A DNA stretch of 64,000 nt, taken from the NCBI GenBank assembly GCA_036172245.1, contig JAYWIR010000040.1, positions 1,612,001 to 1,676,000 of the forward strand, given 5' to 3'. Shown piece after piece: positions 18,171 to 58,130 of this stretch. Made by a program: the position numbers and the translations under genes. Origin of the DNA: Raillietiella orientalis (Eukaryota). Position 1 is the first letter of the stretch, and each line of letters opens with the position of its first letter. A model generated the notes under the pieces. That model was not told the origin of the DNA. It saw only the letters and a list, made by a program, of their open reading frames with translations, and did not search any database.

Positions 18171-19622
18171 TTAATACAGACGCTGAGGAGGGCCCATGGT
18201 AGACTTGATGTGTAAAGAACGCACATTCTGCCAATGCTTTTTTAGCAGAGACACCAAGAAGTTGATTGACAGGTGGATGTTTTGGGCAAGCTCGTCTGCT
18301 GTCATGTTCACATGGCCTACTGCAACTGATAAACACAATACTTTCTTCATCTGAAACTTGATGGTTGCCTTCACTTCATCGATCTTTTGCAGCATATTCT
18401 CTTGGTGGGTTATCAAAGTTGGAAATTTTCCAGCTTTATTCAAGCCTGGCCCCAGCAGTCTAGGAATCTGCTTGATGAGGGCCTCAGATGCGAGGAAAGC
18501 ATCATACTTCTTAGCTGATACACACACTTTTACAAAGCACTTTCCTGATCACCTGCATTACCTAGTTTTTTCACCAATTTTTTATTCTTATTCAGCTTCT
18601 TCAAGGCATCACCATCCATGTACGGGATTTCATTGGCCTTTGCTTGGTCACAGTGTTGCTCATCTCCCAAGACACAAACCTTCATTTTTGGACGAGGGAT
18701 GTGCCTTAACCTAAAAACGAAGACTTTCAGCACCTTTTCTCCAACATGCAGAATGTTCGCTGCTGTTGCTCACCTTCAGCAGCTAAATGATGGATAGTAA
18801 TCGGAAAGATTGCCAACAGAGCACTCAACCCCAATTTATTTTAAGACTTTGGGTGCCAGTCCGCACAAGGCTACCTGTTTCATTGCTGTATTTAGATAAT
18901 GTGAATTAATTAGCTTCTATTATTTAACCTTTTATCACTTGTATCGTCAAAAGTACTTATAATTTCTTTTTAAGGCATTGCAGCATGCACTTCGAATGTG
19001 TTCATTATAACAAACTACATCTCTAAAACTTCCTAACATTAATTTGCAAGACTGTGTTTACAGCTCCTGTCAAGGAGCTACAAGACGTGTTCTCGAGTTT
19101 TAGGCACTAGTTACGGCTAAATACAGCAACTACTGTCAGGTTATACATACTTCACAGTTCCTGAGAAACGCTTATCCTTCTGTGGATCATAGTTCTTTAG
19201 GCCTATCTGCAATTCTACAGTTTCAAGAAACTTTCTTTTTTTTTCTTTTGAAAACTGTAACACCGCATTGATACACTCATAGAGCATATCTTTTGAAACT
19301 TTGGAGCTAAAACAAAAAAAGTTTAATTACAAATGAAACACCATTAAAGGGGCAGCATAATTAAACTATTAGCATCATGAAATTTGATAATGTAACACAA
19401 AAATAAATGGACAAAACGTGTCGTGATGAATCATTGATCTCAAAAATACGTTAATAATTGAACAATACTTCGGTAACTGCATCTAATACGTAGTTAGGAA
19501 ACACTACAAACTACCAACGTAATTCAAAGTTTTAAACAATTGATGATAGTCTCAAACTTAATTAACAAGCATTGCTACATCGCATAAACATTTTCATTAA
19601 AACATTACTGAACTCACCTCAT
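18171..19622 (-). CDS. RpL10a: 60S ribosomal protein L10a (uL1). Exons: 19622-19618, 19306-19151, 18710-18562, 18514-18171
   Basis: [13 protein letters not shown]...[35 protein letters not shown]...[11 protein letters not shown]...[12 protein letters not shown]. The first coding exon is ATGAG|GT; introns are GT-AG. Confidence 0.97.
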
Positions 19623-29649: not shown

Positions 29650-30230
29650 ATCGAAAGACATCAAGCCAATCTGCCGGGATTGCAATTTGAAAGGGGAAAA
29701 AACAAAACAAAATACTTGCAAGCGGAAACTGGAGCTAGGATTTTTTTTTTCTTTCTACGAAAATGTTTTCGAATTTGGAACTTTGAAGAATCTGCAAAAC
29801 CGAAGAAATCCAACCGGAAGCTATGGGCCAGGGATTTCTCCTTCCTTGATTGCTATCCATGTCCTTTAAATATTTCGCGAAAACATTTCAAAAAAGGATG
29901 CGTTATCCTCCCCGCAATCCGTTCATCCAGACACTTTCCCGAGTGTGTCCGAATATTTTCCCAGCGATGTGGGAAACGTCGGAGGTGTCGCCGGGGCGCA
30001 GCGCCCGAGAAAGTTGCACGGTGCGGCGCAAAGTGCGGAGGCGGTGCCATCTTCCGTCGAATTCCGGAACGAACTGGTGGCTCAGTGGAAACAGAAGTGT
30101 GCATTGTTGAGGGTGGCAGAAGTGGTGGTCAGTCATCCCGGAAGAAGAGTGAGAATTTCGAAATGCCCAGCATCCCGCCGAAAAACGCGTTTCCCCCCCT
30201 TTTTTTTTCTCCAAAGGAGTGGTAAATAAG
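29650..30230 (+). mobile_element. Possible L1/Tx1-like 3' (zinc-knuckle) fragment
   Basis: 'KKGCVILPAIRSSRHFPECVRIF' resembles C..C...ET..H.F.EC; followed by an A-rich tract near 30225-30253. Confidence 0.3.
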
Positions 30231-31088
30231 AAGCAGGAAAAGAAAAAAAAAAACATGTCCTTTATTTGTGTATGTTAGTTGCATGTCGTGTAACAAGTTT
30301 TGCAATCAGGAAAGTTGATGTCGAATGCACAATCACTTTCGATGAAGCCGCCCATTTGAAGAATATAACAAATCCATTCGAAAACAAGTTTTTGGACTGT
30401 TCTTTGAGGAGGCAGGTTTTTCAATTAAGTGAGATTCCCATTCATCTGTTCATGGAAACTCTTTGAACCCAAGGAGCATTACTGGTTTTAATGGTGCTAC
30501 AATAGTTCAGTCAATAGACATTTTATGGAATCACATGGATGTTGAATAATAGTATAATGTAATGGGGAAACGAAAGAGCAGTGGAAGTGGAGTGGATTTA
30601 GAGGAGTGCATCATGAAGGAAGATGAAGAAGAGTTAGTTTGCTTTATCTGTTTAAGTTTGATTTTGCTTTATTTTGTTGAGTAATCAATAATTTATTCGT
30701 TTCAGAGTTTATGTTTCCAAAAAATGTAGTAAATGTTAAAAGTAGATAAAATGCATTGGTAAAATGTATTTCATTGCAATGAGTTTTAGTGTTGAGAAAA
30801 ACTGAACCCATTGAAAGTCAACCTAAAGAAGTATTCCTAATGTTTCTATGTGTCTAGAAGTGTTTATATATTTTTATTTGAATTTTTCATTGGAGTTTGG
30901 ATCCTTTTAAAAAATATATTCGAAGATAAAAATTATGATTATGAAAAAAAAAAAAAAAGAATCACACTCACTGTTGTATTAAAAATCGAAAACTTTATTC
31001 GTAAATATAAGTGCATTCAAGAGAATGCGTTTATTAATGTTGTGAAAGCATAGAACTTACATCTTTCGTTTAATCTTTACAAAGGGAA

Positions 31089-34000
31089 ATGATTGCCGAC
31101 GAACTGTCGAATCAGTTTGAAAAATCATGTTTAAAAAAAAAAAAGGGGGAAGATATGGATGATAACAACGAAGTGACTCATTGTATACGGAGCAGTGCAA
31201 GACAGGCGAAAAAGAAAATTTTAGAAGAAAGTCGAACTCTTTTAGAAAATGGTTAATTTCTAAAACTTTTAAAATCAGTACATTGTTTCATATTTTTACA
31301 GACAGAGAAAACACGTATAACATAGAAAATCAATCTGAGAATATCAAGCAAAAGAGGTCTTGGGAACTTTGGTCAGCAGAAGAAAATGAGGCCTTTTTTG
31401 AGGCATTAAATGAATATGGGAAAGAATTTGAAGCAATTGAAAACCACATTGCACTTAAAGCAAAAAAGAAGGGTGCATCCCACATAGCAGCAAAAACCCG
31501 TAACCAAGTGAGACACTTCTATTATAGAACATGGCATAAGATATCAAAGTACCTAAACATATCTGATGGTAAAAAAGAAAATTTTTCATAGCCAAAATAT
31601 TTTACACACCTTATCATTTTAGCAATAAAAAAGAGTACACAGGAAATTTATGGTCTTATAAATTATGGAGAAATGAGGAAACGAGTTGGCTGCCATTTAA
31701 ACAAGAAAGTACTGTTCAAATTAAATGAATTAGTGCATAAAGGAACTACCATTGTGCGCATAAAAGGAAAAAATTTACGTATAAAGACACCAGTATGCTG
31801 TGCATTAAAAAAATTAAATAAGATTGCAGGTATATTGTTATTTTCATTGCCTTTGCCAAGTAGCTAACATATTTTTAGAAGCTTCTGAAGAGCACCTACT
31901 TCGCCTTCCAAATCATGTTGCCCTGCAATTGCAGCCTCGTTCCAATTCATCATGGCTTTTTGTCCAAAGCCTTGCACAGAATCCTCGACTGCGTATTAAT
32001 TTCTCCTTAAATACTCGTATTTCAACTGTGATTAAATTTTTGCAGAACAAATGGCGATGCCACAATGAATACCTAGTATCCTTATCTAATTGCTGTATGA
32101 TTTTTTCTGTATTTTTTATTCCTTGACTCAAATCAGATGAGCAAGCAATTCAATAGCAAGTCAGAAGAAAGCATAAGTGAATCTTTTTTTAGTCCATCTC
32201 TTCGACTGTATTTGGCAGATTCTATGGATGTAGTATTGCTTTCAGTCAAGGCTATGGAAATCATTCAAAGTTGTCAAGTTAGCCTAAAAAGTTATAAGGA
32301 TAATATGATGCATGCATTTAGTTTGGATGATCTCATTTGTGAACAAATTACTGAAAAGAACACTTTAGAAAATACATCAAAACCCCCATTAGATGCTAAT
32401 GTGTGTGCTCATGATGATAAAAAAACACATGATTCCCTTGAAGATTCCCTTAACATAAGTTCTGTTTCTCACAAAGAGGATATTTGTCAGTCTTATAGCA
32501 GGACCAATCATAATTTGAAGCAGCCAGAATTGGCAAGTAGTACAAAACAATATGTGATGTTAGAATCCCAGTCTTCAGTGCAAAAAACTGTATTTCCTAT
32601 TACACATCAGTCTCAGGGTGATCTAGTCAATCAAAGAGATAGTGACGATCCAAATGACAAAGCAAATTTAACAGATAAAGACCTTTCCAGCCTGCTTGAA
32701 AAAGAGAGAGAAAAAATTAAATTAGGTTGGACAGAAAAAAATGCATGTGATTTGACAGTTGGTGAATTGTTTCTTATGGTAGTTGGTAAATGAACTTGAT
32801 AGTGGTGATGCACTAATATGCTTACAGGTGGGTCGACCAAGCAAAATTTTTCTCTTGTATGAATGGGAATGGGTTGGAATCGCCAGTGCAGAAATTGCAC
32901 AGTCCAATCAAATGGTTGGAATTAGTACTTTATCTAGTATTTTGCAGACTTTACTGTCTGTAGCTCAGGAGATTTGTGTACCATCAAAAGTTAAGGTTTG
33001 TGAATGAACTAATAATATGTAGTTATCATTTGTAAGCAGATGCATCAATGCAGCATTTGTGGGCATAAACACCAGTGTAATAACAATAGTGGCAATTCAC
33101 GTGCTTCAATTAATAAAACTAATATTCGTTCAAAGGTAGGTTGTAGGACAGTTTTGGCTTGGATACAAAAATTCGATGTATGGCTAAATTATATAAATCA
33201 CATGTATGCATTTAGTTTTTTCAAGTTAGAGGTATTAAGTAAGTTATTCAGTGAATAATTTTATTCAGGTTTAAAAACATTCAGAGATTTTATGAAATTA
33301 GTGAACAGTAATTAATTTGAAATGGAATTTCAGTGCAATCTAGAGTGTGCAATAGATCAGGAAATGGAAAAGTACACAATGTATTAGAATAAAAGTACAC
33401 TGCCAGGCTTGCATACAGCAGACTTGCCATATTTTCTCATAAACAAAGGTACAAGAGTTAGTACAGCTTGAACGTCAGTCAAGTATACATTTCTTCATTT
33501 AGGCATATTTTCCTCCTGTCACTTGTTGATTGAAAATATTGTATTTTCTGTGTATCAGGCTCAACTTTCACTGTTTCTGTTATACCCACATGAAAGTTGT
33601 GTATCCAATATACTCAATATTAATATGGGAACCAAGAACATTCAGGTTGGCTGAGGAGGATTCCTCACTTTAGCATGTGGAACAAACTCTGCTGGCTCCA
33701 ATTGTACTTGCAGTGGCATCATGAAATTTTTTTCCATCCAACTAAAATAGGCTGCATAGGCATTAAGGGTTGCATCAATGTTTTCTGCTTGTCATACTTC
33801 TCAGCCTCCGATTCATATATATCTCAGAAATTCAAAACAAAAGATACAGACGTATTTCTGTCAAGTATTTCAGTTTAGCTCCATTTCCAAATTTACTCAA
33901 TTCGTTTCACGGAATGTAATTTTTTTAAATGCCTCGTTTTCTGTTTACATCTATATTTTCAAAAGAGATAACTTTGCATGTTGTTTCTTTGATGCTGTCT

Positions 34001-35712
34001 GCAATGATTCATGAAAGTGTTGCATTGCTAATTGGGTAATGTTTGAAAAAAAAATCTCAGCCATTGTGAAATTCCATTATTGTGAACTTTGATTAATTCA
34101 GTTGCATAAATTCTATTTCTGATGTCAACACTGCAAGTGACTTCTCTTATAGTGTATTTGCTTATGGACACTGAAAATTTACATGTCACGTCATCAGTTT
34201 TTACACTTTAAAAGCAGAGATTGGATCAGACCAAAGGGGCTGTTCTGTCAAATAAGTGCACTCATAAATGAATGCTTTGCTTTTGTGTTTGTTCATGTGT
34301 ATGAATAAAAGTACATTTCAGGTACCTTGTGTTTTAAATGATCATACAAAAAATTGTTTTGTATGCTTTAAAGAAATTGTACTAACAATTAATTGTCAAA
34401 TACCTCCCTAGCCCAAACTGACACATCAAAGTGTCCAGGTGTCTCAGCATGTACAGGCTGATGTATGTACTTCTCATGTGTTACAGTCTAATAGCACTAT
34501 CCCCCTCACTGAAGACCTTGGTAAGGATGCATTTATTCAGCTTGGTGATGTTTGTGTAGCCCAGGTAGATGATGCTGTTGCTCCAAAGAGAATTCAGGTA
34601 AACTGGGAAGCAGAACTGGAGAAAATTGTTACACATTTTCAGAATATCATCCTCCCACGTTTTTCCCGACGAGGTACTCGAAACAGAAGTAAAAACACAG
34701 TTACACCAAGGATGGTTCCAGTATTACCAAAAAATCGTTCTTTAACAATGAAAGTGGGAATCCCTCGCTGCTCCAATTTGCAACTACGTAATAAAATCAG
34801 TGGAACAGCTTACTTGCCCATAACCATTTCTCCCAATATTCCTACAAGTACTGCCTCAGTTTCCTTGGCTCATAATATTCCCATTACTTTGACAGTGCCC
34901 ACTTGTACCATAGGAACCACCTATCCTTTTATGGAGAACGACTTGGTAATCAGATCCCCTCAATTAACAGGAGAAGTAGTTCAAGTAACTGAATCTGATC
35001 CTTTACAAATGCTTGTTGAAAAAGAAATCATCGGAGATTTTGTCCCTTCAAAGTTGCTTGCTTCTTCTTCAGGCAACAATAGCATAGCTAATCTTCATAT
35101 TAAAGAGGCATCTTCCCAAGACATATCTTCACTTCTGGGCATCAGTTTGCAGGAAAATGATTCTTTACTAGAGCATCTGGAAAACTCCGACCGCAGTTTT
35201 TCAGGCAAATTTTTGGTTTTTCATGCTTCATTAACTTATAGATTCGTTTATAGATTTACTAGAAGCGAATTTGGTAAGCAACAAACAAGCAGATTCCTCC
35301 ACTAAAGAAAGGAAGAAAGAAACGAATGAAACTCAAGTTGTTACCCCTCCAGGCTCCCCCTCACGATTTTTGCATGATTCAGAAAACCAGTGGCTCAATC
35401 CTGAGGTTTAATTTTTGATTTTCACTTGCTTCTTTTTGCATTGTTGAGCTACTTTACTCTTCTTTTTAGATTAGTGAATTATCTCTTGGTAGTTTACTCA
35501 ATCATCTTGATTCTCCTTGCAAGCTATCATCCAGCAATGGTGCCAGTTTAATGGAAAATCCCAAGCTGGTAAGTAATTAAAAAATCTTTCATTGTCATAA
35601 CCTCACTGTCGAATAGATGGATTCCCAGTTTGGATGTTTGTTAGAGAATAGCATTGATTTCACAGCTAAATTTGCTGACTTAGCTGCCAAAGCCAATGAC
35701 ATCAACCAGTGA
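31089..35712 (+). CDS. CRAMP1: Cramped-like SANT/Myb chromatin regulator. Exons: 31089-31251, 31302-31568, 31623-31829, 31879-32075, 32137-32778, 32828-32995, 33040-33135, 34412-35204, 35254-35405, 35470-35568, 35617-35712. Extra 5' exons from about 30562 are possible.
   Basis: 'IRSSARQAKK', SANT domain 'KRSWELWSAEENEAFFEALNEYGKEFEAI...QVRHFYYRTWHKISKY', 'EIYGLINYGEMRKR', 'RIKTPVCCALKKLN', 'AQNPRLR', 'LTVGELFLM' and C-terminal 'ENSIDFTAKFADLA'. AATAAA at 35738-35743. Confidence 0.92.
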
Positions 35713-35801
35713 ATTTGCTGATTGTAACAAACTTATTAATAAAACTATTTTTTTAAGAATATGCTTTTATAATCAAGAAGTTTGTTGTACTTTTATTAAA
35801 A

Positions 35802-36455
35802 TCAATCTGTGCTATCCACGTTTTCTGTCTGTAGACCCTTGAAAGAAGCTTTAGGAACAAATGTGACTAATGTATACAACTGATGTGGCGAATCTTCATC
35901 TTCGTTTCTTCTTCTAGATAAACGAACCCTGATTCTGTGTGGTACACTTCTGCAATTAAACAGGCTTTTACAGAACACTTAAATGTGAGCTTTACCTTAC
36001 TCCTTTGTACCATACTTGTTGGTTAAGTTTCGTATCAATACGAACATCCTGTGTGCCCATTTGTTTTTCAGCAAATTTTCTGATTTCTTTAATAGCACGG
36101 GGAGCACGCTTTTTGAATCCTCTGGAAAAGTGTTTCATTTGCTAAATAAAAACTCATCCAACAAAATATCAGATCAACGCCTACTAACAACACTGCGGGA
36201 TACTTATATTTCCAAAATTCAATGCGTACACTAAACCATTTCATGTTACGTTTACAAAGACGGCTAATAAATTACAAAATTCTTAAGGATGGGGGCAAAA
36301 AAAAAGAGTAAAAGAAAGGCAAAGAATAAAAAGAAAAATCAAAACTATTTCACTTACATTCCATGTAGTCTTTTATGCAAATGGATTGTGTATTCCCTGG
36401 AGACAATTTCTTTGGTAGTGGATTTCTTTTTCCTTTCACCTTTATTCTTCGCCAT
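35802..36455 (-). CDS. RpL31: 60S ribosomal protein L31 (eL31), 123 aa. Exons: 36455-36358, 36121-35996, 35949-35802
   Basis: [66 protein letters not shown]...[30 protein letters not shown]...DSTD*. GT-AG introns; total 372 nt. Confidence 0.97.
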
Positions 36456-38899
36456 TGATAAAGAACTTCCTTTATGCCAGTAACACTATAACATCTAGAA
36501 AGAAATGAGAAAATGCAACATTAACACGATGCACATAACTATGAACAATCTCAAGAACATATATTCTAACAAATTCATTACCAAACAAATTCTAACACGA
36601 TCCTTTTAACACCATCCGGATGCACATGCTTACCAATATTACAAGTATGCGATTATGGAATAATCGAGTATGCAATAGCAGAGTATTCAAAAACAATTGT
36701 CACGCAATTTCCACATTAGAATATCATTTGCACAGTATTTTCTTAACTTTCTATGTGATAAGGCTTCTTTCAAAAATATAATCAAGACCTTGTTTTCGTC
36801 TGAATGTTCGTTTTATAACTGACAATAATTGCTTTCGGCTTCGCGAATCAATTTCCAACTAAATAAAAACAAACACAAGTGAAATGGCAACATGTGAACT
36901 TATTGCAATTCTGAATATCTTTAGTTAAATTCTTTTCTATCTAGATATGATTTGCTTTTCAAGATTCAGCACCATATGGTGATTGTCTTAATAGCTCTAG
37001 CATGGATAACATTCGACAAATCAGAAATCATAGACATCAAATAACTGAATATATGAGAAAAAATGCCTTTCTCATTACTGAATGCTTGATATATTTTGGA
37101 ATGTTGCATTTAGTTAACAAATCAGTATCTCTTTTATCAAAATCCTACTTTTTTGAAATCAGCTCACGTAAAACAAGCAAGGGTTAATTCACAATTCAAG
37201 GACATTGATTTCAAAATTGTTTTCAAGAAATGCAAAAATTAGCTCCTCTTGTAAAATATTAAAAATGATGAAATGTATTTATACATCTGAGATTGACATC
37301 GGAGATGATTCTTCTACTTGACTGAGAGGTAAAAATCAGAGCTACAACACGAAAATATTCTTCTGATCAGTCAGTAGATAGAGCAGCCAGACAAGGATTC
37401 ATGTCCAATGCCTTCATGACTCGAATATTGGAACAAGTAATAATTGGGAATCTAGATGCTGCTGAAAATCTTGAAAAGATCCAAATATCCGGCACATGCT
37501 GACCACTCATACATAGAAGGTTTCGGTATTTTCACTGGTAGAAAGAAAATTTTCTATTGTAGTTTACCCTCTTCTTCCTATAATCGAAGTCAAAAAAAAG
37601 TGAACTGAATAGCACCTAATCTATGCAATTTATCAGGATGATTGTTTATCTCTTAATATATACTGGAAAATTTTTCTTCTACTAACTTACTTCCATGTGG
37701 AATTTCAGTACCTACAGAGATGCATAAATACGAAATTGCCTTATTGTTTTAATTTTTAGACCCAAAAAGTAAGAAAGATTTTACATTAGCTGATTTCGTT
37801 GATTACCATGGTGTAGCGATTCGAAAGCTTCAATTTCATTTAAAGCCCCATCAGGATATTTGATATATTATATTTACCATGAAACTCCTCCAATAACGAA
37901 AAAAGCTTCAAATCTCGAAATGGAATTTAATGATCAGGAATAATTCCCAACCGCCTATCTTAACGTTACGGATTCGTCTCGGTCTTCGTGAAAATATTCT
38001 CCGTGTTCAGAAATTTTGATTTGAATGCTAGCTTTTCATATCAATTTAAAAATTCATCTACATAATGGAGAGATTATTAAATTGAAGAAGACTTGATTTT
38101 TGATTCTTAACGCTTCGCTTATTTGAAGCAATTTAATTGGTAATTGGCATTAAGAAGGCAACTTCAATGAGGTTTGTTTCCTTGGAACATGAATTCTTAA
38201 CTTTAAAATGAATTAGAATTACATTTCCATTACAAGCGTGCTTATAAATAATGCTGAATAATAGTATAAACAATGCAAAGTCATCTCAGAATAATTACGC
38301 AGTAAATCATATTTCACTGATAGCTTTCGGTTTCATATTCCATCTATTTATTAGTCGTAGATGGTGGCCGACTGTTTGTCCGCTGACTCGCAAGTCTTCC
38401 ACAATTTGATATGATTTTCTCTCTGGTATTAATGAATTCATTTTTATTATAACAAGATACTCTTACGCATTTAATTCATGTATCATGTTTGCTCTTTAGT
38501 TTTTTTCATTAATATAATCCTGGTTAATTCATTAAGAATTCAGATCCATATCAATGAAAAGCAAAGTGTTTCATGCTAAAGCTTTATGGGCATTATACTG
38601 AATGATAAGTTTTGTTGATATTCAATACAAAAATTAAGCTTGCCTTTCAAATTTTGGTGTTGCCTTTGCACTACTTTCTTCCCAAATTCCCAAATTCAAA
38701 AGCTCGATCCCCCCCCCCCGCCCCATGGTTTTGTTCCAAACGAATGACATTCTCAGGAAAATTCATTTTAAAACAGCTATTTTCATACTTTTACGAAGAG
38801 GAAAAGAATATGTAAGGGATACCTTAAACCTTTTCTTGTTTTTGATAAAAAGGGGGAGACGATTCTCAGTTTGGAGTTTCGCTGTTACGAAGAGACAGT

Positions 38900-43599: not shown

Positions 43600-44000
43600 A
43601 TTTGGAGATCACCATGGAAACGGTCGTGGAGCTGTCCGGTCTAGCAGGGCAGTTAGCAAACTGTTGGTTAATTATTCGATGCCGGGATCGGGAACTCGAT
43701 CCCGAGATTTTTCCCTGATCCCTCGGCGGTGCTTCGTTATTTCCTGTCCGCTGCCGTTGATTTCGTTAGCAGTGGAACTTGAAAGTTGTCGGGTGAGCGT
43801 CAGCGAAATTTGAAATTCGGCGGTTTGCATGTCAGCATGGTAACCTTTGTCACCATTGTGCCGTGTGTTACCGATGCAATAATGATAAATAAGCAACCAA
43901 AAGTTCCACCATTTCGGTAAACAGCGGCGGCAACAGAGTGCCTGCTGCTGGTTTGATGGAATTGAGGAAACAGTTCTTTTGGTTGTGCTTTTAGCGTTAG
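43600..44000 (+). promoter_or_regulatory. CpG-rich promoter/5'UTR region of the TRIM-NHL gene
   Basis: CpG-dense segment ending at a donor-like AG|GTAAAG (44001), followed by abrupt CpG depletion through the gene body. Confidence 0.45.
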
Positions 44001-44283
44001 GTAAAGTGGTATGTTCAAAAATTCATAAACGATTTCAACCTTCACTCACATGCATGTATGAATAATGATATAAAATGAACTCTTATTTGAATGGAATGTT
44101 GATAAAAAATTCTGCTTTACAGGTATCTAGAAAAGCTGTATAAAACGTGTGCTCAAAATGTGTAAATACAAAAAGGGCATCTGTGAAGCCATACTGATTG
44201 AAACCGAAATATGGGAAAGATTCAGTATTTAAAAAACTGATTAATGCTGAGTTTATGGTCTTCAAGGATGCGTATATTTTGTT

Positions 44284-47200
44284 ATGATGGAACAATATGA
44301 AAGTCAAAATATGTTTTCTGACTCTGTTCAGTCATTTGATGATAATGATATATGTGAGATATGCCATACTAGATATGTTATTCCAAGAATCTTGTCATGC
44401 TTGCATGTGTATTGCGAATCCTGTTTGGAAAAGCTTGTTTTAAGTGAACATGGAGAGACATGTAATGAAAAAATTATTAGTTGTCCTGGATGCAATCAGG
44501 AAACAAAAGTATTATTTTTTTTTGGTTTGTTATTTTGTTTGTAAAGCTATTACACATGCAGTCAGATTTTTGTAGATGCTTTTTTGATTTTTGTTTAGAA
44601 TATTCTTGTAATATCTACTTATGAAGCATGTAAATTATCAAAACGCTATTTTGTTGTATAGGTTGAAAATTTACAGACTAAGAAAGTATTGTGTTTCATC
44701 TTCCAAATAATACTTAGTAAAGTCTTCATACTGAAACACATAACAGAAATCATACTTCCTCATGATCGGTGATGTAGTATGATTATCACAAAACACTTTC
44801 ACATTGCTATCTCGTGTTTAGCAATTAGTTTGAGTTTATATTAATGAAGGACGACGTAAATCTACAGCAATTTCGAAGGGTTAAAAATCGAAACATTGTA
44901 ACACGTTTTCTCTGTGTGAAGTTGAATGCAATCATCTTTGTGCCTTCCACCATTTGGACTAAATGCTGCTTTCTTTAGGATTTTCATTGCATGGGGAGGA
45001 TTCCTTTTACGCCAGTGATTATATTTTCTGCTGCTGTAAGATTATTGTAGATTGACATTGTTGAAAATTCATGTGTGCTTAATTTGCTGTTTAGATTTTA
45101 TGATCTTCAGCATTGGGTATACTGCAAAGGATACTTTGAAAGAATTTGCAGAGATCTAGGTAATAAGTGCTAATAAATGTTAAATGCAGTAATTTGTAAT
45201 CATGACTACATTGTGTAAACAGATGTCATATAGCTGCAATTGTAAGGTGGTGTAGCACTCCTCTTGCTTGGTTAATAGATCCTGAACATTTATTAGCAAC
45301 TTTTGAACCTTGTGTCTATCAAAATACTTAATTGATTTTAAATTTGTTAAAATGATTAATGCCTTTAATAATGTCAGCATAGTTTACATTATTAAAAATT
45401 GCATCTCATATCACATTTTGACTGGCATATTACACTTTGGGTTTACATAGACTATTTGTTTGTTCCGTTGATCATATGGGAAGGAATCTTCAATTTGAAA
45501 ATTTGGACCAAAAATCTCATTATTGTTTAATTAAGCTGGGACCATAAAATGTAGGATGTGCTTTAAGATTTTTGTACGTGGATCCATATACTAGGAGTAA
45601 ATAAGTGTGCTGTTTCCATTGAGAGATTCATTTATGACTGCTGTTTCTTTGCATAGGAATCTTAACATCTTAAAGCAGTGATAGCAAAGAGGACTGTGAC
45701 TGGTTGAATCATAAGTAGCATTTTATTATAAATGAAAAAAAAAAACAAAAAAAGGTTTATTGCAACACTTGAAAACAGGTATATATCTGGTAATTGAAAT
45801 TTATAGTTTAACCAAAGAGCAATGAAATACTGTTGGATCCATGAAGAAATTTCTACAAAGTATCCAGGATATCAAATATATATATCTGGTTTTTGACAGG
45901 GTAGAATGAAATCTTTTCAGATGGTGTTATGAAGAATAATTTAAAAGCTTTATCATGAGTTATCTTCAGTTGGAGTCCATTTTTAGCATATTATATGGCT
46001 TCCAAAAGTAAATTGATTGGAATCTGAGAATGAATTTGTTAATAAAAACTTTTAAATAATTCTTGAAATGTTTTTTTAGTATTATCTGTTATGCATCGAG
46101 TTTTCCTACCAAAAGTAGTTCACTCGTATTTCTTTATAGCAAATGATTTAATTTTAAGATCTGGAACTTAACAAAATGCTGTTTTCTGATTTCTGTCATT
46201 CTGACTTATCTTAATTTTTGAATGGGGACAATAGGTTTAACCATATTTTTACACTTACATCAACACGTCTTTAACAAAAGTCTGTTCATTTAGCTTCCTT
46301 TTTTGTAAAGTGAATAGGCATGCATATAAGCAAACTAACTTTGCAAAGCATACAAGGTCAGTTTGATGGATTGATTTTAAGCTTAATGTAATAATGATGC
46401 ATGGCTTTCAGACTGCTGTGTTGCCTTGATATTCCGTAGTTGAATTTTTTTTATTTCAAGAAGCGTATCTTGAACCTGACAAAATGAGAAAAACCTTCAT
46501 AATTTTTTTCGAAACCCAGACACAAAAAAGAAATATGAATTCTTACATTTCTAGCATTCACTTGAATATCATTATTTATTCTACTTTGTATTAAGGAATT
46601 GTATTCATTATTTTTCAAATAAGTATGTGCTTATGCAAATGTAACTGCCCCTGAATTGTTTGCAGAATTGTTGTGTGTTGGGAATGCGGTAACATTTTAC
46701 AATCCATTTTACATCTTACAATTTTTATTTCTTGGGGAGAGATTTGTTGTTACTTTGTGTACTTTGGCTAACAAATTTTCAAATATGATCTTTACATGTG
46801 GAGCACTGGCTTTTTTCTAGATTGTTGACAAAGGAATACCATCTTTGCCATTGGACTATGTTCTGTCAAATTTACTGGATATGGCTGCAATCAGAAATCA
46901 GACTGTTTTGTGCACCTCTTGTAAGGCTAAAGTCAAAGCAGTTGCTAGGTGTTCAGACTGCGCCAATTTTTTGTGCCCTAACTGCAATTCAGCTCATCAA
47001 GTGAGTTTTTTTGTACATTATGTGTTTACACATTCTTAGCATATGAGATGCTTTGAAAACCATCGTGTAGCATCGTTTGAGGATTTGCTTAAGAGTTCTG
47101 AAAAATTGCCAATCCACACCCCTATTAAATGTTCTTTGCACTCTAATGAGGTTTTGCATCAGTTTTGTCATTCTTGCCAAGTGAGTGGATGTTCTTGTTG

Positions 47201-49784
47201 GAATACAAAAGTGACCATCAGTCTAGGTACCCATTTGCAAGGAATGTACAATAGAAGAGCATAAATCTCCAGAGCACCACTTTGATCGGATTTGTGACAT
47301 TGAAGAGCAGCAACGCAAAGAGTTGCATAATTTAGTAGCTGACAGCAAACTAAAAGTCCCCTTTTTAGAGGAAGTATCTGAGGAACTACAGCGTGCTTTA
47401 CAAGACTTGGAACGCCATAGAGACAAAGCCAAAATGCTTATTGAAGATGCTGCGCATGTAATATATTTCAATTCGCAGTTTAGCTATTGATCCCTTTAGA
47501 ATCTTAGAATCCTGCTAGATCACTATAAGAATGAAGCTTTATCTCAACTGGAATGCTTTCACAATCAACAAGAATTGAAAATCATGGACTCTTTTAAGAG
47601 GTTTGCACACAGATATTCATTGGGGGTGGGGAGGAGAAAAACTTCCAATTTTCTGTCTAGAGTTGAAAAAACTATGTTCAAAATGGAAGATGCATGCCGT
47701 TTTTCTTTGCGTCTACTAGAGCATGGAAGCATGCTAGAAATATTAATGCTGAAGTCTCATGTAGTAGCACAGTTACTCCACTTAACAAGTTTTACTCCAA
47801 ACATGGATTTCAGTGTGCATATAACTTTTGTGACTCAACCTAGCAAATATGAGGAAAGCATGCAAGTGAGTTAGTTGCATAGGTAGATGGAACTTTCTCC
47901 TTAGGAACTGTTTGGTAAATTGCAGCAACCAGATACCCATGTATCTCCTTTACCTTTGCCAGTTGTAATTCCTGCGTCCTTTGATGACAACAGGTTTCTT
48001 CCCTCTCCTATTCTGACATCCACTCCTCAATTAGCCAACTTAAATATAAGCACAGATGTTCTTGAATATAATCTCAAGCAGTTAGCTAATTTGGCTGGTA
48101 AGTAAACTATCTTGCTCCCTTGATGAAAAGCACAAGGAGTCATCATGTCAATCCTTCTTTCTGCTGCCCTTTGATCCTTGCTCTTCTGTATCTTTGCCTG
48201 ATATTTTCATCTGTGATCTCAATGCAACTAATGAGTTGGATGATTTGAGCTTTCAAAGTGAAAATATGCAGAATAATTTGTAAGCTTTAATTCAGTTGGG
48301 CTTTTCTCCCACAGGAGTTGGTGAGTCAAGTTTTCAGGGTTTCCATGTTTTTAAAAGCTATTAGAAAATACGATAACTTAGTAAATATCCATTGTTACTG
48401 TTTTTTTAATTTACATAGCTGATCATCTGACCATTTCAAATGCAATGGAACCTATTCCACCCAATGGAACACTTGCTCCTGCAAATAGCTTGTCCATTTC
48501 TCCTAATTCACTTCTGAATAATAATCCCAGTAAGCTATTGATAAATATTGTGATCTGATTATTTGTAGTTGTAAATGGCATCATTCCTAGCCCATTGCAG
48601 AATTCCAGTGTAAAAAACAATTCCTTTTTAAATGCTCCAAGTCACTTGCAGCAAGGATGGAATAAGTATGATAGATAATCCCCTAAGGGCATCAGAACTA
48701 CATATTTGGTAGTTCCGCCATTTATTCTTCTTTGCGTTCTTCAGTTGCAAAACTGAACTCCATGCAGATAAGGTGTAAATTCGGACAACTTGGTCCAGCT
48801 AAGGGGCAATTTAATTCTCCTCATGGGTTTTGTTTGGGTGTTGATCAAGATATTGTAGTTGCTGATACGAATAATCACAGAATCCAGGTATGTTCTCTAA
48901 GCACGATTATTGTTGATTCATTGTATTTCACAGGTATTTAACAAAAATGGAGAATTCCGTTGCCAATTTGGCATCCCAGGAAAGGAAGAAGGACAGTTGT
49001 GGTTCCCGAGAAAAGTTGCAATAATGCGTGTATCTGGAAAGTTTGTTGTCTGTGATCGCGGTAATGAGAGATCACGCATGCAGATATTCACCAGGAATGG
49101 ACAGTTCTTGAAAAAAATTGCTATAAGGTTGAGACCATCGATTTTGGGTTAGATGTGTGTATGATCATGTCAAATTAGATACATTGACATAGTTGCTGGA
49201 TTGGCTATTTCACAGTGTAGCCATATTGTTGCTGTTGACAGTGTGTCACCAACAATATTCATTATTGCTGAAACAGGTGAATTGGTCAAGTGGTTTGACT
49301 GCAGTGAGTATATGCGAGAACCATCTGACATTGCCATAAATGGTGAGCTTGGTTCTTGTTTTCATGCAATCTTAGTGGCTGCTGAATCATTTCAGACAAA
49401 GAATACTTTGTTTGTGACTTCAAAGGCCACTGTGTTGTAGTATTCAACGAGAATGGACGATTTTTGAGACGAATTGGATGTGAAAATATTACAAATTTCC
49501 CCAATGGGATTGATATTTCTGATGCTGGAGACATCTTAGTTGGAGATTCCCATGGGAATCGTTTCCATGTTGCTGTTTTCTCCTGTGATGGATCGCTGCT
49601 ATCTGAATTTGAGTGCCCCTATGTCAAGGTGATTTGTCACATCCAGTTTAATGCTGTTGCTTGTATGTGTCAAATTTAGGTATCCCGATGTTGTGGTCTG
49701 AAGATAACTTCTGAGGGATATGTGATTACCTTAGCCAAAAATAACCATCATGTTCTCATCCTGGACACATTGTATATTGCCTGA
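44284..49784 (+). CDS. mei-P26: TRIM-NHL protein, mei-P26/NHL-2 type (RING, 2 B-boxes, coiled coil, NHL). Exons: 44284-44508, 46821-47000, 47040-47180, 47227-47457, 47500-47600, 47661-47865, 47905-48097, 48419-48529, 48569-48665, 48713-48887, 48934-49127, 49179-49342, 49396-49628, 49680-49784
   Basis: RING 'CEIC...[14 protein letters not shown]...CPGC', B-box 'CTSCK...[18 protein letters not shown]', and NHL '[11 protein letters not shown]...[10 protein letters not shown]...[14 protein letters not shown]...[10 protein letters not shown]...[26 protein letters not shown]', characteristic of mei-P26. AATAAA at 50457-50462. Confidence 0.93.
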
Positions 49785-51263
49785 GTGTAACAGCCACTCA
49801 ACTGTGCATATCATTCTCTAGTCCGGCACTGGAGTTTGTGCTTATACTGTCTTGGAGTATAGGTTTCTCACTACACTGATGCAAGCCTTATTTCAAATTC
49901 ATACAAGGCTCTTGTTTTCTCATCAGCTACCTTGCTGTATCTATGTTACCAAAGTCCAGTGCAACTTCTATCTTGTGATATTCATAGGAAGAATCTTGTA
50001 TACGCTTACTACTCAGTTGCCTTCATAGCAGTTGCCAAATTTTGATTCGGTGACCTTTGCTATATGCTTGTCTTCCTAACCCTTCCATCAGACACCATCC
50101 AGTCATTTCAAACATGGTGAATTGGCTAGTGAAGCAATACAGAAGAAAAATACATTATTTTGCATTTATGATAGTTAAAATATTATTATATTTGGAATGC
50201 ATTTTCAGTTGAGAATACTTGGATTTTGTTCACTTTGTGGATTTTGCCATTTGATGCAAGTCATTGTGATAGTTTTCTAGTTTGCTATTTGTTTGTTGTA
50301 TAAACATAGGTGTTATTTCTTTATATTCCCCCTTTTTTTTCTTTTTCTTCCACTCCCCCGTTTACTGTGGATTTGTCACTTAGGAAAGCTTTTGAGTTTT
50401 TACAGACTTTTTCAAAAGAATGATTGTTGACAATATCTTAATAGATATTCTGCATAAATAAATGGTTTTCTTTTTTTTTTAAAAAAAAAAAAATGGAAAT
50501 GTATTTGATTGGGGATTTATATTTTAATTCGATTGAAATTTACGTTAAATCAACAAAATATCCGTGGAGAAGAATCCTGTTGTACATCACTTCCACAAAG
50601 CTATGGATGAAACCACCTAATTGAAAATGATTTTTGGCGCTCTGGTGAAAACCGTTATCAGCATACCGCGAGAACGTTCACTCCACGGGCATTTAAAACA
50701 ACAAAAAAAAAGGAAAAAAGAAAAAAAGCCGAAATTGCGAATGCTTTCGAAATTCTCCGTACGTGGTGAATTCTGCTTGCCTCCTTGCTGGCGTATGACG
50801 TCACGTGTTCCTTGCGTGTGTGCGACGCATATGCGTGTCCGTCACGCATATGTTAGCGGCATATTTGGTGGGGACGAATGCGTGGGCTTGCCAGGGAGTT
50901 GTGTATTCCGATCCTGGTGCAGCCCGGGAAGTATCGGGTGAGCCCGCTCGGAAAGCGTGCACCTCAAACAAAAAAAAAACCGCCGAGAGCAAACATTCGA
51001 CCTGCTCGGGGAGTTGCACCGAGCAGGTCGTGTTTGAGCAGTGGGGAGGTGCGCCGCTTCGGCGGGCGGAAGCCGTCGAAGTGCGGGGCATGCCCGCGCC
51101 TGGCGCGCGCAGCCCCACAACCCACGGGGGGGGGCAGCAAGCGAGAGAAGTACGGACGGTTCCGCACTTCGCAGCAGCAGCGGATGCACAGGGTTCGAAA
51201 GCACAGGCACTGCTTCGTGCTGGGGTGGTCAACTTGCCCTCGTTTCATATCAGCGGCGGCGGC

Positions 51264-51868: not shown

Positions 51869-54800
51869 GATCCTTGGTCATTCTTTTGCATGTCTCAGAT
51901 CTTGGCTTTCTTTCCCTTCGAGGCCCCAACCATCTCCACAGCTTTTTCATTTGGTGAAAAAACAGAAAGCCTCTGAAAAATCTCAGCAACTGTCGCACTT
52001 TTGCACGCGAAAGCGGGAGGAACCGTGGTTTGCCACGTTCCCCGCGAGGGTGTAATCAGCCAGCGCTTGCTTTGACCCGCGCTGGCCTGCTCGACCCAAC
52101 GATGGCATCTGGTCAGCATGAAAGTCCACTTTTTCACAACTGCCTGCCTCTGGGGAAAGTCGTTGTGATCCACGGCGGTCTTCGACTCGGGTCGTTTCGC
52201 GGAACAGGAGAGTTCCAGCGAAGATTCGCGCACTCCGCCACATGGATTGCTGCTGGCGTTTCCAAGCATCTCCTCCGGGAGCCTCTGGAGGGGTGCGAAC
52301 TTCATCAGAGGACGACGGCATCATAAACCTCCAGCTTGCACTGGGTGGGTGCATCCTGGTCAGTGTTTCGATAAAACGCCTTTGGACTCGCAGATGCTCG
52401 TGCCGCAGAACACGATTCCAATGCGCCACCACTTATCTTTATTGTTCATCTGAACAGAGCAATGGTACGAGATTGTGTATCAGTTTCTTTTTTTTTTTTT
52501 TTTTCCTTCTCGTCTGCTACGTCAAGATAAGAGCCAAATCATTTTTGCGAACATCCCGCTCTATGAGTGACCCATCTAGCCGTGGATTGGATTCGAAGAT
52601 GCCGGATACTTGCTGGGACGGTTCAGAAAATTCTTCATCACTTATTCCACTTATTTTGCAGGGTGTTGCAATTTATGTATTGCCTATCCGTTGCATCACT
52701 TCTGTGGTCTCGAGGAAGAACGCTGTGCTCTCCGTGCTTGTGATCTCACGTCATTCTATTCGACAAACTTTTATCAGATGCTCCCAATAGGGTGAGTTCA
52801 TTCCCGAGCAGTTTTTGTATAGCGATTTCGTCAAATCGTGTCCGTTTGCTGCGTACATTAGCAACAGACCTATGTTGCCCAACCACTAATAACGACAAAT
52901 CGCTCCACGTCTCGATGGAAAAGTGATTGAAAAAACATGGTGACACGGCGTGTACTCCTGACATCCTGAGAGCCTTCGAAACCGCCGTCCTCTGAATAAA
53001 CACATCGATTAGATACACGAAGTGTGTGCGCGTGCGCGCACACAATGCCAAACAGCCTCGTGATTGCCCAAACACACACACACACACACACAAACACACA
53101 TCATCATGAGCAATGTCACAAATTCCTGGCGTTGCATCGGCACAGCCTCCAGGTCGCATCCAGCGCCGAGGAAAATTGCGGCATCTCGGGATCAAAGGCG
53201 GCTCGAGACGGCTCCAGATGCAGCGCTCGGCTCTCTCCTTGTGCTGATTTTGGGGTCTTTTCTATACACTTGCACGCCGCACGCGTACCTATGCGTACCT
53301 TCGTACAGTTCGATAAAAAAGTTTCACGCAAACGCGGTCGCTGGGAGCTCCACATACTCTCGTGCTCTTTCATGCGATCCGTTGCGTGCGCTACCACTGG
53401 CGACGCGCAGCCTCCGTTTCCGGTCACGACCGAGCAGTGCATGCCCGCACAAGAATCACTGACTTTTTTGCGACTCCATTTTTCTTTTCGAGAATTCCTT
53501 CCCTCCCATGTGGCCGTACGTTTTTTTCTTTCTTTCTTATTCTCATTTTCCTTTTCGCTGATGTCGAAAACCAGCCTCCACAGAACCTTTCCTTACAAAC
53601 GGAGGACCCAAATCAAACGTCTGCAGCACCGTTCTGTTTCCTTTTTTTTTTTTTTCTTTTTACGTACGCAACACGGGGCTCACCTCGAGTTCTTTGAAGA
53701 GGCCCCCCCTTACGTTTCCTAGACTTTTGGTCCAAGTTCCTCTTTCCGCCGCGCGAGGCAAACGACCTGAACCGAACGCGGATGCCGGGAATCTGCAAAG
53801 CTGGCGAGCGGGCGCCAGGCACCACTTTGGAGTCTTCAGAGGACAACTCGTGGGTTCTGCTGGAGAGGAACGCCGGGCTTCCTGCTGTTTGTGACGGCCT
53901 CTTCGCACGACAGGTGGGAAGCACAGGGCTTAAAGGAAGGAGCAACGACCAGGAACGCCCGGACGGCACACAAAGCGCTTCTTGCGCTTTTTTACCTCCC
54001 GTTGATTTCACCGTTCAGAGATCTTTTGCTGCGGCAGTCGCAGTCAAAAGATGTTTCCACGAGCGCGACCGTGCCAAGAAGACCTGCTGGACTGAAGAAC
54101 GCTTTGGTCCAGCACGCAGGACGCTCGGGTCGTGGACAGGCATCTCCTGAGGCTGGAGGACCGGAGCCACCGCCGTCTGTCACCCTCTCATCCCGCACCA
54201 CGCACTTCTCCGGAAGGATGCCGAGAACGGGACCGGATGCAGATGATCCGGAGGCAGAGGCAGGCGAGGACGCACCAACAGACGGCGGGCGCGGGGCTGG
54301 AGCGGAATTCCTCCACCCCCCCCCCCCCCCCACCTCGAGTGCCTGCGTCTGCGCTCGTCCCGAAGTCATAGGTGCCGCTGGACCCCGGACGGCCGCTCGC
54401 CAGCGGCCTTCTTGCACCTACAGGCCCGGTTGTCCGACTCAGACGCCTCTTTGCGCGTTGCCTTCCGAGGTGCAGCCTCGATGCACGTCTTTCGGTTCCC
54501 CCGACTTCCCGCGCGCGCTTCTGAGATGCCACGTTCCCTTGCGACGGGGGCTTCCGCCCCCGGGACCCTGGTCACCCCATGGCAACTGGGCTATCGGGAA
54601 CGAGGAACGCTCCTTGGGTCGGGGTTTCTTCCGCCCGTCTCCCCTGCATCAGCCTGTCTCGACCTCACGGACGCAGCGAGGAAGAAGAGGGAAGGGAGGG
54701 AACAACTGAACAGCCAATCGCTACCGGAGACTGCCTCTGCCCCCTCCCATTCTCTCTACCCTGGCTGGCGTCGACCAGGAGAACGCGCGCGAGAGGGTTT

Positions 54801-57800
54801 CCTAGGGAACCCGCAGCCCCCCGGCTCAAGATGCCTTGGACCTTTGCCCGCGCTCTTACAGACGCATTCAGGTTCCTGCAATCGTGCGCACCGGGAGGGT
54901 GGTTCCTTCTCTGTTCACCTGCCCCCACCCCCACCCCCGCCTCCGAGACCCTTCTCTTTCGGGTACGGATGTCGGGAAGGTCCGTCCTCGCTAATCAGCT
55001 CCGCACTCACTGGGTGAAGGCTATCGACCCGGGTCGGGAGTGTGTAGAAATGAGACTTCCTCTTTTCCCTGGAGTCACTCCTCCTCGGAGCAAGGGGAGC
55101 AGAAGAGGAGAAAAACGGGTGGAAAAAGGGAGGAAGCCATCGTCTCCTTCCCGAGAAGGCCCAGTGAGACGGGGGCCAACGACCCGCTTGGGCCCTCAGC
55201 ACGCGAGAGAATTTTCCACGTTGCCGCAGTGGCGTCCCGCGGGGACGCGCTGCAGGGTCACGGGCTGTCTCCGCGGTGCTTGAGCCTAGCGGGCTTCGGG
55301 GGCAGGGGGAAGGAGGGGGAGGATGAAGGCACCGATCGGTGCGTAAGTTCTCTCCGCTCTCTCTCTCCCCCCCCCCTCCCTACCCTCTTGCGGTTTTCTT
55401 GCAAGTAAGGGAAGGAGGGCCCGTTCTTCGGGGCGGAGGGGATGCGCCTCTCCAGGATGGGACTGCTCCCAGGAAGGCTCCCATGGGGGAAAGGTCGCAG
55501 CAGCCTCCGAAGGAGACTGACGGGGCATAACCGCCCGAAGTTCCAGGCTACCCTATTCCCTGCGTCGGAAAGAGGAAGAGGTACCCGCTACCTCATGCGA
55601 CGCCGCCTGGGGCGCAATCCCTCCGAGAGGACGGAGGGCGCGAGTCGGCGCGGCTGAAGCGGGCATGCAGAGCAAAGGAGGAGGAGAAGGAGGAAAGGGA
55701 TGAGCGGGGGTTCCTAGCGGCGAGGTCAGCACTGTCGGCTCCGGTTCTGCTGAGTCCCTCCTTCCCTCGCCTCGCTCGGGGAGAGGAGGGGATGTGCGGC
55801 ATTCCCAGCGTGGTTTTTCGCCCGGGAGGGAGACGGCAGACGGGAGTGTGTGCATGAGAAAGGGAGCAGCTCCCTTCCCTCGCCAGGAAACGGCAGCCGC
55901 TGACCCCGGTCCGGTTGAAGGCGCTGTTTCGGGGTGCGCGCTTCGTGATAGGGTGCCAGCCCGATGCGAACGCGCGCAGACACGGCTCCCGGTGGGCGCG
56001 CCATGCCACGTCACGGTCCACACCGTCACCAGAGGACAAGGGGGCGAGGGCAAGCCTCGGAAGGAGGCAGCGTGGTCGCACGTGCTTTCGGGAAGCGACG
56101 AAACACAGGAAGGTCAAAACACAAAAGCACACACAAAGGCAGATAGATGGTGGTCAGGTTCCTCTGGGCCCGCGTCTCGTGTGTGCTCTTCCTCACAGGA
56201 GTGGCCGAGAGTTTTCGACACTGGGGGGGACGTGACCTGGCCTCCTCCGTTCTTCGTGTGTGTACCTCTTTCCTGCTGACTCCTTCCGCTGCGGCTACGG
56301 GTCCAAGAACGCTGTGCTCTTCCGGAACGAAAGACTTTGTGTTCCGCGTGTAGCACACGGGAGAAACGCTCACGGGCGAAGACACCTCGGCGCGCTGTCA
56401 CGGCAGATGAAGTGCACGCAGGCAGGCGGATTTCAACCACTGGCAGCAGCGTTCTGCGGTCGATTTTTCCTGGACCTCTGCTCGTCTTTCCCGCGCGTTC
56501 CTCGAGCGGGGAACCCGGGCAGCCCCGAGACGCTCTTCCCAGCTTCCCCTTGATGCAGTTGCAAGGGGAAGCCTCGCGCTAAACAAGCCGCGGAAAGCGT
56601 GGACTGAAAAGCAGATGTCGGCACATGAGCAGGAGGCAAGGGAGGGAGGGAGGGAGGGAGGAGGAGGACGTCGGTTAAGCTGCCACCGTTCGTCGGGACA
56701 GGGCGTTGGGCCAACGAGACCCCGCCATCCGCGGGCAACGCGTCCCCCTGGCGCGTTTCCTTCAGAGCCTCTTCCGCCTACCTCACGCATTGAAGCACCG
56801 CGCGCCCCTGCGTGCTCTAGGACCTGCGGAGAGCGACGCCGCAAAGGCAGCGGCCCTGGGTCTGCAGCTTTGGGAAGGGATCCGCCAGTCAAGCCCGTGG
56901 GCACGAAGCATCGTAGGCTGTCTGCTGCCATCGCTGCAATCAGGCACACAGGAAGCCTGTTATCCTTTTCTCTCTTATTTACCTGGAATTGCGTTCAACA
57001 GTGCGTGACTAGAAAATAACTTCCGGTTTGAAGACCAGCGAAGTCGACTTTGCGTAACACGGAGCATTCGTCCTCGCATCTGTGGCCAGTGCAGCGTGCA
57101 TCTTCAGTGCAGAGCAAAAACTTTCTCTTTGCAAACTGCGTCCACAGCGCCCTGTTTCTCAACACTCTCCCTTCGTCGCTCCCCCACTTTTTACGGTAAG
57201 GTGCTCAGTCCCACGAACGACGTCTCCTGCCGTCACCATTCCAGTCCAACAGTCGTGGGGGATTTTTTTTTTCCTTCTTCCGAATGGAATCAGTCATTTA
57301 CATCGTAACCGATCAGCAGCAACCGATTGGGAATGCTGCGCGAGTACACGGGTGCTGCCTCACTCCCGCACCTTCATCTTTCTCGAAGCAGGCTACAGAG
57401 AGACATCAACCTGGAACCCTGGAATCGGTCTCGGAAGCCCCAGGAAACCATGCAGCCCGAGCCTTAGGAAGATGCAACAACACGCCGGAACACGATCGGC
57501 GACCGAAACGCCAAACCGTCCCATTCCGGTCCACTCGCTACCAAGATGATGGAGGCGTTTGCAAGCGGATCTTGCCCTGGTGCAAAACCGCTTGTTCAAC
57601 AAACCAGAAACCCCCCAACCCTCCGTTCCGGCCGCCATACGATTTTCAAGGGCTTTGCGGCGGTCCCACGACGCCGTCGGGTGGCGATGGCGTTTTTCCG
57701 CAACTGCTGCCACCGAATGAGCGATGACGGGAGAGCACTGCAGGCGGACCCCGCAGCGAGCTGCCCAAAGTCCGGCCACTTCCTCTGCAAAGTCGGTCAG

Positions 57801-58130
57801 CTTCAGGTACGCTGGCGTGCGAATGCCACGGCATGGACGCGCAACGTCGGCAGGCGTGTCCACGGACGACGACACGGCTGGCTGGTGGGGATGGCTAAGC
57901 AGTCGATGGCGGCTCCCCCATCCTCTGCGGGCGCGCGTCACCGACCTCCCCACTTCCGTGCGGCCGTCCCTCCTGCAACAAGCCCGGGCGCCCCACTGCC
58001 CCGCACGGGTATGGGCGCAGACCAGCAGAGTCGGATGTGGCGATGGTACTGGCACAACCAATCCCACACCGAGACCGCTTGCTCGAGCAATCTGCTGACG
58101 GAGATCACGTGGACGGAACGCGGCTAAAAT
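51830..58130 (-). mobile_element. Heavily decayed L1/Tx1-like element, possibly near full length
   Basis: GC-rich block. Near its 5' end (minus strand) 'RGIRTPAYLKL' and 'RFCTRARSACKRLHHLGSE' resemble Tx1-type ORF1 zinc knuckles. A plus-strand poly(T) near 51838-51854 could be the poly(A) tail. ORF2 motifs are barely recognisable. Confidence 0.35.

Follow-up and report, generated by a model that had tools for sequence, protein, structure and literature searches.

In the mei-P26 gene of Raillietiella orientalis, a 321-nt intron contains a former part of the preceding coding exon. The explanation that we favour, and to which we assign about an even chance, is a large shift of a 5′ boundary: one inserted base would have broken the reading frame and made or strengthened a splice donor at 48098, splicing of 48097 to 48419 (48097^48419) would restore the product, and a second stop codon (TAA at 48281) would have arisen later. 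Positions refer to the window, i.e. the whole 64,000-nt stretch of DNA analysed, and the features concerned are as follows.

44284–49785, + strand: mei-P26/NHL-2-type TRIM-NHL gene; 14 coding exons; 784 aa if 48097 is joined to 48419, open to TGA; Pfam matches to RING and NHL
47905–48097, + strand: live 5′ part of the ancestral exon, with a phase-0 start as in metagenome locus L032; ends in linker motif 1 (11 residues; motif score 32.4)
48098–48103, + strand: putative new donor, at which the frame breaks; GTAAGT (phase 1; score 9.4), overlapped by TAA 48103
48098–48125, + strand: 28 nt, either old codons (the homologous frame is open and reads VSKLSCSLD) or what is left of a short intron with TG at its end (score 5.4 if TG is read as AG)
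48126–48320, + strand: broken coding remnant of 65 codons, recognized by profile, motif and codon scores, with eroded motif 2 (SLPDIF) and motif 3 (NNL*ALIQLG)
48281–48283, + strand: TAA where motif 3 has Gln (58/92 orthologues) or Ala (23/92)
48296–48320, + strand: possible 25-nt exon, out of frame as assembled, with a stop after 434 aa; acceptor at 48295 (CAG, 198 nt from the donor; score 5.1)
48315–48320, + strand: candidate in-frame 6-nt micro-exon (Gly-Val) that would keep the old donor; acceptor CAG, score 2.0
48321–48418, + strand: ancestral phase-1 intron of 98 nt with donor GTGAGT, six codons past the LG of motif 3 as in L032

Results

A single-copy mei-P26 gene

In our curated model, the 14 exons encode an open protein with the same domains as its orthologues, namely a RING, two B-boxes, a coiled coil and an NHL propeller. 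The N-terminal RING exceeds the Pfam cut-off (PF13445, 29.6 bits; PF00097, 29.2 bits), as does NHL (PF01436) in three C-terminal exons. B-box matches fell below the Pfam cut-off when searched exon by exon; both B-boxes and the coiled coil are present, with ∼50% identity across the region to named orthologues, and the coiled-coil region corresponds to a long helix in the AlphaFold2 model of the Strigamia orthologue. One NHL exon shares 94–95% identity with insect proteins that carry the names meiotic P26, ncl-1-like or brain-tumor-like, and the propeller appears, from its sequence, to be closest to Mei-P26-type proteins. The gene is the sole close match in the 210-Mb assembly, which holds two further NHL genes at 46% and 37% identity. 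We therefore rejected the idea of a pseudogene with an intact paralogue elsewhere, as no paralogue was found in the genome.

Two proteins, P0001 (metagenome locus L024) and P0002, one of them from Brevipalpus obovatus, matched the NHL exon with unusually high total scores, the NHL region being aligned twice. This suggests that each chain may carry two Mei-P26-type NHL domains.

A long intron with two donors

The intron in question runs from 48098 to 48418, with its acceptor at 48418 and two phase-1 donors, G/GTAAGT at 48098 and G/GTGAGT at 48321, which lie 223 nt (3 × 74 + 1) apart. The exon frame meets a TAA at 48103, and the frame homologous to the orthologues has another at 48281. An earlier sequence-only reading of the window had given these coordinates, phases, spacing and stops, and all of them hold on re-derivation. 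It had also called the intron unusually long, and so it is: of the 19 further introns that we curated, in mei-P26 and in a Myb/SANT-domain gene of the window (the latter taken to be cramped-like), 18 measure 37–64 nt and the nineteenth 2312 nt. The last of these is the first coding intron of mei-P26 (44509–46820); apart from it and the 321-nt intron, those of the gene measure 39–60 nt. Splice-site scores throughout are rough, because the matrices were built from only these 19 introns. The donors at 48098 and 48321 score 9.4 and 5.6, respectively, against 0.5–10.1 for held-out true donors. Every one of the 20 curated acceptors has TAG or CAG at its end, and none has AAG.

Several other features of the window were seen in passing. 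The shortest curated intron (35205–35241, 37 nt), picked by eye in the Myb/SANT-domain gene, seems to start with GC. Genes with such tiny introns lie in blocks of 31–38% GC (30000–38000 and 44000–50000) adjoining blocks of 59–67% GC (4000–10000 and 54000–58000). A TEAD/scalloped exon (17332–18099, + strand) encodes the complete YAP-binding domain within a single frame of 255 codons and ends ∼70 nt from the stop codon of a convergent RpL10a gene (18171–19310, – strand); the 3′ ends of these two genes probably overlap.

The intron carries eroded linker motifs

In arthropod Mei-P26, the linker from the coiled coil to the NHL propeller carries three motifs: EYNLxQLAxLA (motif 1), FxLADL (motif 2) and NNLxALAKLG (motif 3). 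Motif 1 occurs in 94 of the 344 proteins fetched, and motif 3 in every one of those 94 (92 by pattern, two by eye). A motif-3-like stretch is also present in annelid, brachiopod and mollusc proteins (Owenia, Lingula and Tegillarca). In the AlphaFold2 model of the Strigamia orthologue, the motifs form short helices (residues 420–428, 442–446 and 457–472) within a linker whose pLDDT is mostly under 50, and for this reason they look like binding motifs rather than parts of a domain. In the openly available literature on mei-P26 with splicing, with conserved or disordered motifs or with crustaceans, we found these motifs and an isoform of the present kind undescribed; the passages concerned of a study of Drosophila Mei-P26 (PMC9070667) likewise contain no description of a linker motif.

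Motif 1 of the window gene lies in an exon and is normal, its score of 32.4 falling within the range of held-out orthologues (20–39). The sequence-only reading had proposed that the intron holds decaying coding sequence akin to the orthologue linkers. Consistent with this, one frame of the intron can be aligned with the orthologues. A linker profile built from 73 orthologues gives the intron, in one frame, a score of 14.5 bits, versus a maximum of 7.6 among 1000 dinucleotide shuffles, each taken at the best of six frames (P < 0.001). The codon score of the remnant frame is 0.41, compared to 0.08 and 0.14 in the other two, and five of 2000 shuffles score as high. The number of stops is by itself no proof of a coding origin (P = 0.15). 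The segment is former coding sequence.

The decay that had been proposed is evident in motif 3, which scores 13.1, lower than 29 of 30 held-out variants. Its Ile and Gln each occur in none of 92 orthologues, which have Ala (86/92) and Lys (90/92) at those positions. We rejected the possibility that TAA is read as Gln, since the RpL10a gene of the window terminates with TAA. The linker comprises 160 aa if the segment is counted and 86 aa if it is left out; in orthologues (n = 86) its median length is 154 aa, with a 5th percentile of 97 and a minimum of 55. Motifs 1 and 3, both predicted helices, have the pattern N-L-x-x-L-A-x-L in common, and motif 1, which is retained, may compensate in part for the missing motif 3. 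This likeness is loose: against the motif-3 profile, motif-1 sequences reach scores of only −6 to 10.

The segment seems to have been dead for only a short time. In 22 held-out coding blocks, codon scores range from −0.11 to 0.35, all below the 0.41 of the remnant, a value that fits a very recent death and also a still-coding exon with errors. The long exon could then be intact in the species, with the window showing assembly errors or one damaged haplotype, and codon use as coding-like as that of live exons, with a single internal stop, is what such an artefact or private allele would give. We think this improbable, because it requires two independent lesions within 190 nt in a gene whose other 2355 coding nt, beyond the lost segment, are open. 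Moreover, the frame is broken just where a consensus donor of matching phase lies, and the erosion seen in motif 3 has spared motif 1.

The downstream donor as the ancestral one

We compared the gene with the best 30 of 80 metagenome loci (L005–L034), among which only L032 is both intron-bearing and spans the linker. This locus, 81–98% identical to an ant protein, has seven intron positions in common with the window gene, and the latter has four introns that are absent from L032. In L032, a single exon extends from EVFG through motifs 1–3 and ends at a phase-1 donor six codons past the LG of motif 3, the position of 48321; there is no intron after motif 1, i.e. none at the position of 48098. 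Six ORF fragments with intron-like tails, from about four insect-like species, are also unbroken through motifs 1–3 and end a few codons later. The position and phase of the L032 donor, together with the six fragments, show that 48321 is the old donor. The sequence-only reading had taken the segment for ancestral coding sequence moved into the intron by a new donor; the comparison agrees on the coding ancestry and on the old donor, and 48098 lacks a counterpart in these insect-like sequences. A protein search with the coiled-coil exon gave no matches, and no close relative emerged from the other searches.

Past the old donor, the frame runs on as GESSFQG (48321–48341), similar to GQSTLNG of a spider orthologue. 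This likeness is probably due to chance, although a second old donor at 48339 (score −1.9) may be conceivable.

Since four of the window gene's introns are missing from L032, there may have been an older short intron at 48098, and de-exonization has to be considered alongside the boundary shift, with which it shares the predicted mRNA. Here, 48098 would be the donor of a lineage-specific short intron whose acceptor has died (now TG, 48124–48125) and which has shrunk to 28 nt, and the symmetric 195-nt exon downstream (48126–48320) would be skipped in frame and decay. If the splice fell at 48125, the product would read LANLA-EKHKESS, which resembles LASLA-EKEAASS of insects, and a pyrimidine-rich stretch lies upstream of the TG, which scores 5.4 with an AG in its place. 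That score, however, is matched or beaten by 6.7% of 734 exonic sites; 28 nt is less than the length of the shortest curated intron; and the curated acceptors are all TAG or CAG. In addition, neither L032 nor the six fragments have an intron at this position, and a deletion, the loss of the AG and the TAA are all required. On balance, we judge de-exonization unlikely.

The frame break falls on the proposed new donor

A single extra base that explains the frameshift is confined to 48084–48103, and motif 1 is intact through 48096, so the break falls on the donor G/GTAAGT. In 4936 exonic nt, there is a single occurrence of the consensus GTRAGT, which makes it unlikely that break and donor coincide by chance or error. 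When an extra base at 48097–48102 is removed, the best remaining donor scores 4.3–6.8; with removal at 48103, the value is 8.7. We also considered a tandem duplication of the 28 nt as the trigger and rejected it, because only 11 of 28 bases match, which is the chance level.

According to the boundary-shift explanation, then, an ancestral exon (47905–48320) would have encoded the three short linker helices. One extra base at 48097–48103 would have shifted the frame, produced the stop at 48103 and, simultaneously, made or strengthened an in-phase consensus donor. Splicing 48097^48419 would drop 74 codons of disordered linker in frame and leave the RING, both B-boxes, the coiled coil and the NHL propeller whole, and we propose that the allele survived for this reason. 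The detached segment would later have gained the nonsense change at 48281. The event would thus be a recent and probably tolerated one, with transcripts from the old donor as by-products that give a 427-aa product or decay. One point against this explanation is that motif 3 appears more eroded than recent decay alone would make it. Another consideration is that, in a gene of 40–60-nt introns, the old donor, being nearer (intron of 98 nt), may be a competitor of the new one, whose intron measures 321 nt.

Splicing paths inside the intron

The sequence-only reading had stated that no phase-compatible acceptor rescues the segment. Three in-phase AGs do exist past TAA 48281 (48284, 48314 and 48317), and use of the old donor would therefore not always yield a stop-codon isoform; the statement stands for the motif-bearing part, which none of them rescues. 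Internal acceptors in phase score 2.0, −1.8 and −5.8, and the best internal one (5.1, at 48295) is out of phase. The two in-phase acceptors at 48314 and 48284 are both weak and retain only 2 or 12 codons, respectively. The removed lengths of 223, 217 and 187 nt are all of the form 3n + 1, and 198 nt is a multiple of three, but its junction is out of frame as assembled. Among 449 open GT–AG paths (introns of at least 35 nt, at most two internal exons), none retains the NNL codons, and the best open path retaining LPDIF requires a site scoring −1.9. With acceptor 48284, a 36-nt exon would restore N-L-x-x-L-x-x-L-G in the right register (score 14.3); it was ranked low, as the AAG of this acceptor is found in none of the 20 curated ones.

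These acceptors bear on a further alternative, true internal intronization with the old donor still in use. The new intron would be either 48098–48314, leaving the 6-nt micro-exon in frame, or 48098–48295 (198 nt, 66 codons), whose removal would keep the frame only on the assumption that a G at 48097–48098 was miscalled or arose later. At the old donor, the sequence remains a perfect GTGAGT, and both lesions fall inside the proposed introns. Acceptor 48295, a multiple of three from the donor, has a sequence that was created by the same changes that eroded motif 3. Its score is equalled by 4.5% of 246 exonic AGs, but by a rough estimate a site scoring 5.1 in a given frame would be expected by chance in ∼15% of such segments, and without the G no nearby donor scores above 4.3. 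For 48314 the score is equalled by 27.6% of exonic AGs, and 48284 has the disfavoured AAG ending. We consider internal intronization quite unlikely.

Both donors are intact, and it could be that cells choose between them. Poison exons and alternative 5′ splice sites can be coupled to nonsense-mediated decay (NMD); to our knowledge, the known poison-exon switches are conserved and regulated. The window gene resembles them in that the distal donor would add a premature stop ahead of several introns: with the old donor, translation would end at 48103, upstream of seven introns, leading to decay or to a 427-aa RING/B-box/coiled-coil protein without NHL. Such a protein could pair with full-length Mei-P26, which the relevant passages of PMC9070667 describe as modelled as a dimer via N-terminal helices. 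The sequence-only reading had raised a regulatory switch of this kind. The comparison speaks against it: the window stop is not conserved, all 94 motif-1 proteins have a coding motif 3, orthologues show no such isoform, and the appearance of the segment suggests recent death rather than conservation. We found no RNA structure across the intron (z = 0.43), and after a recent event an intact old donor is expected without any selection. A regulated poison isoform accordingly seems to us of low probability, and on present evidence the case lies outside the conserved poison-exon class.

Discussion

Exonic sequence has been seen to become intronic in other lineages. The passages concerned of a survey in Cryptococcus (Roy 2009; PMC2740785) tell internal intronization, de-exonization and boundary movement apart, all of them rare among 28,256 introns; for intronization in Caenorhabditis, Irimia et al. 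2008 is cited. In these cases, as in the window gene, a newly used splice site made exonic sequence intronic while the old coding signal remained visible. Of the features of intronization given in those passages, exonic ancestry is present in the window, whereas the length is no multiple of three: the five intronized introns of that survey are internal, all multiples of 3 nt and mostly still alternatively spliced. Of the features of 5′ boundary movement, we find an old donor downstream, an in-phase donor upstream, the same acceptor and an open product, donor use being inferred from the reading frame; in L032 and the six insect-like fragments, the upstream donor is absent. The sequence-only reading had used the term exon intronization; in the terms of PMC2740785, as its passages on these classes define them, the main form is a 5′ boundary shift and not the conversion of an internal part of an exon. 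It differs from the cases described there in size and consequence as well: most of the in-frame boundary shifts listed measure 3–12 nt, and the shift in the window is 223 nt long, at the 5′ boundary, out of frame and with two stops.

The relevant part of a review (PMC3443670) describes intronization by point mutation and by a route in which a premature stop comes first. The second route resembles our case in that a stop and the splice site that removes it go together; the +6 base of the donor is also part of TAA 48103. It differs in that the window gene reuses the old acceptor, so that an existing intron grows and no new intron is needed. Intron gain has also been argued, in the part of PMC9612004 concerned, to begin as a splicing error. 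In the literature on exon loss and on crustacean mei-P26, we found no direct precedent.

Compared to Drosophila Mei-P26, as far as the passages of PMC9070667 describe it, and to the arthropod orthologues, the window gene has the same domains, a nearly identical NHL exon and an intact motif 1. The difference lies in motifs 2 and 3, which are kept in all 94 motif-1 proteins and are missing from the sole open product of the window gene.

A more far-reaching possibility is that we are looking at a splice switch at its birth, in which one base made the donor, the frameshift and the stop. The two donors would compete in a regulated manner, giving either a motif-less full-length Mei-P26 or an NHL-less, dimer-forming 427-aa form (or decay), and this choice would replace the linker-motif control common to insects, spiders and molluscs. 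We regard this as a long shot.

What the data most readily suggest is a clear, probably recent change in gene structure, of a known kind, that stripped an old motif from a germline regulator. If confirmed, the boundary shift would be an unusually clear snapshot of a large event of this type in an animal, with a likely one-base trigger, where such events are counted as rare in the passages concerned of PMC2740785. It would also represent a natural deletion of a Mei-P26 linker motif that has been kept from molluscs to insects, through which the role of the motif becomes testable.
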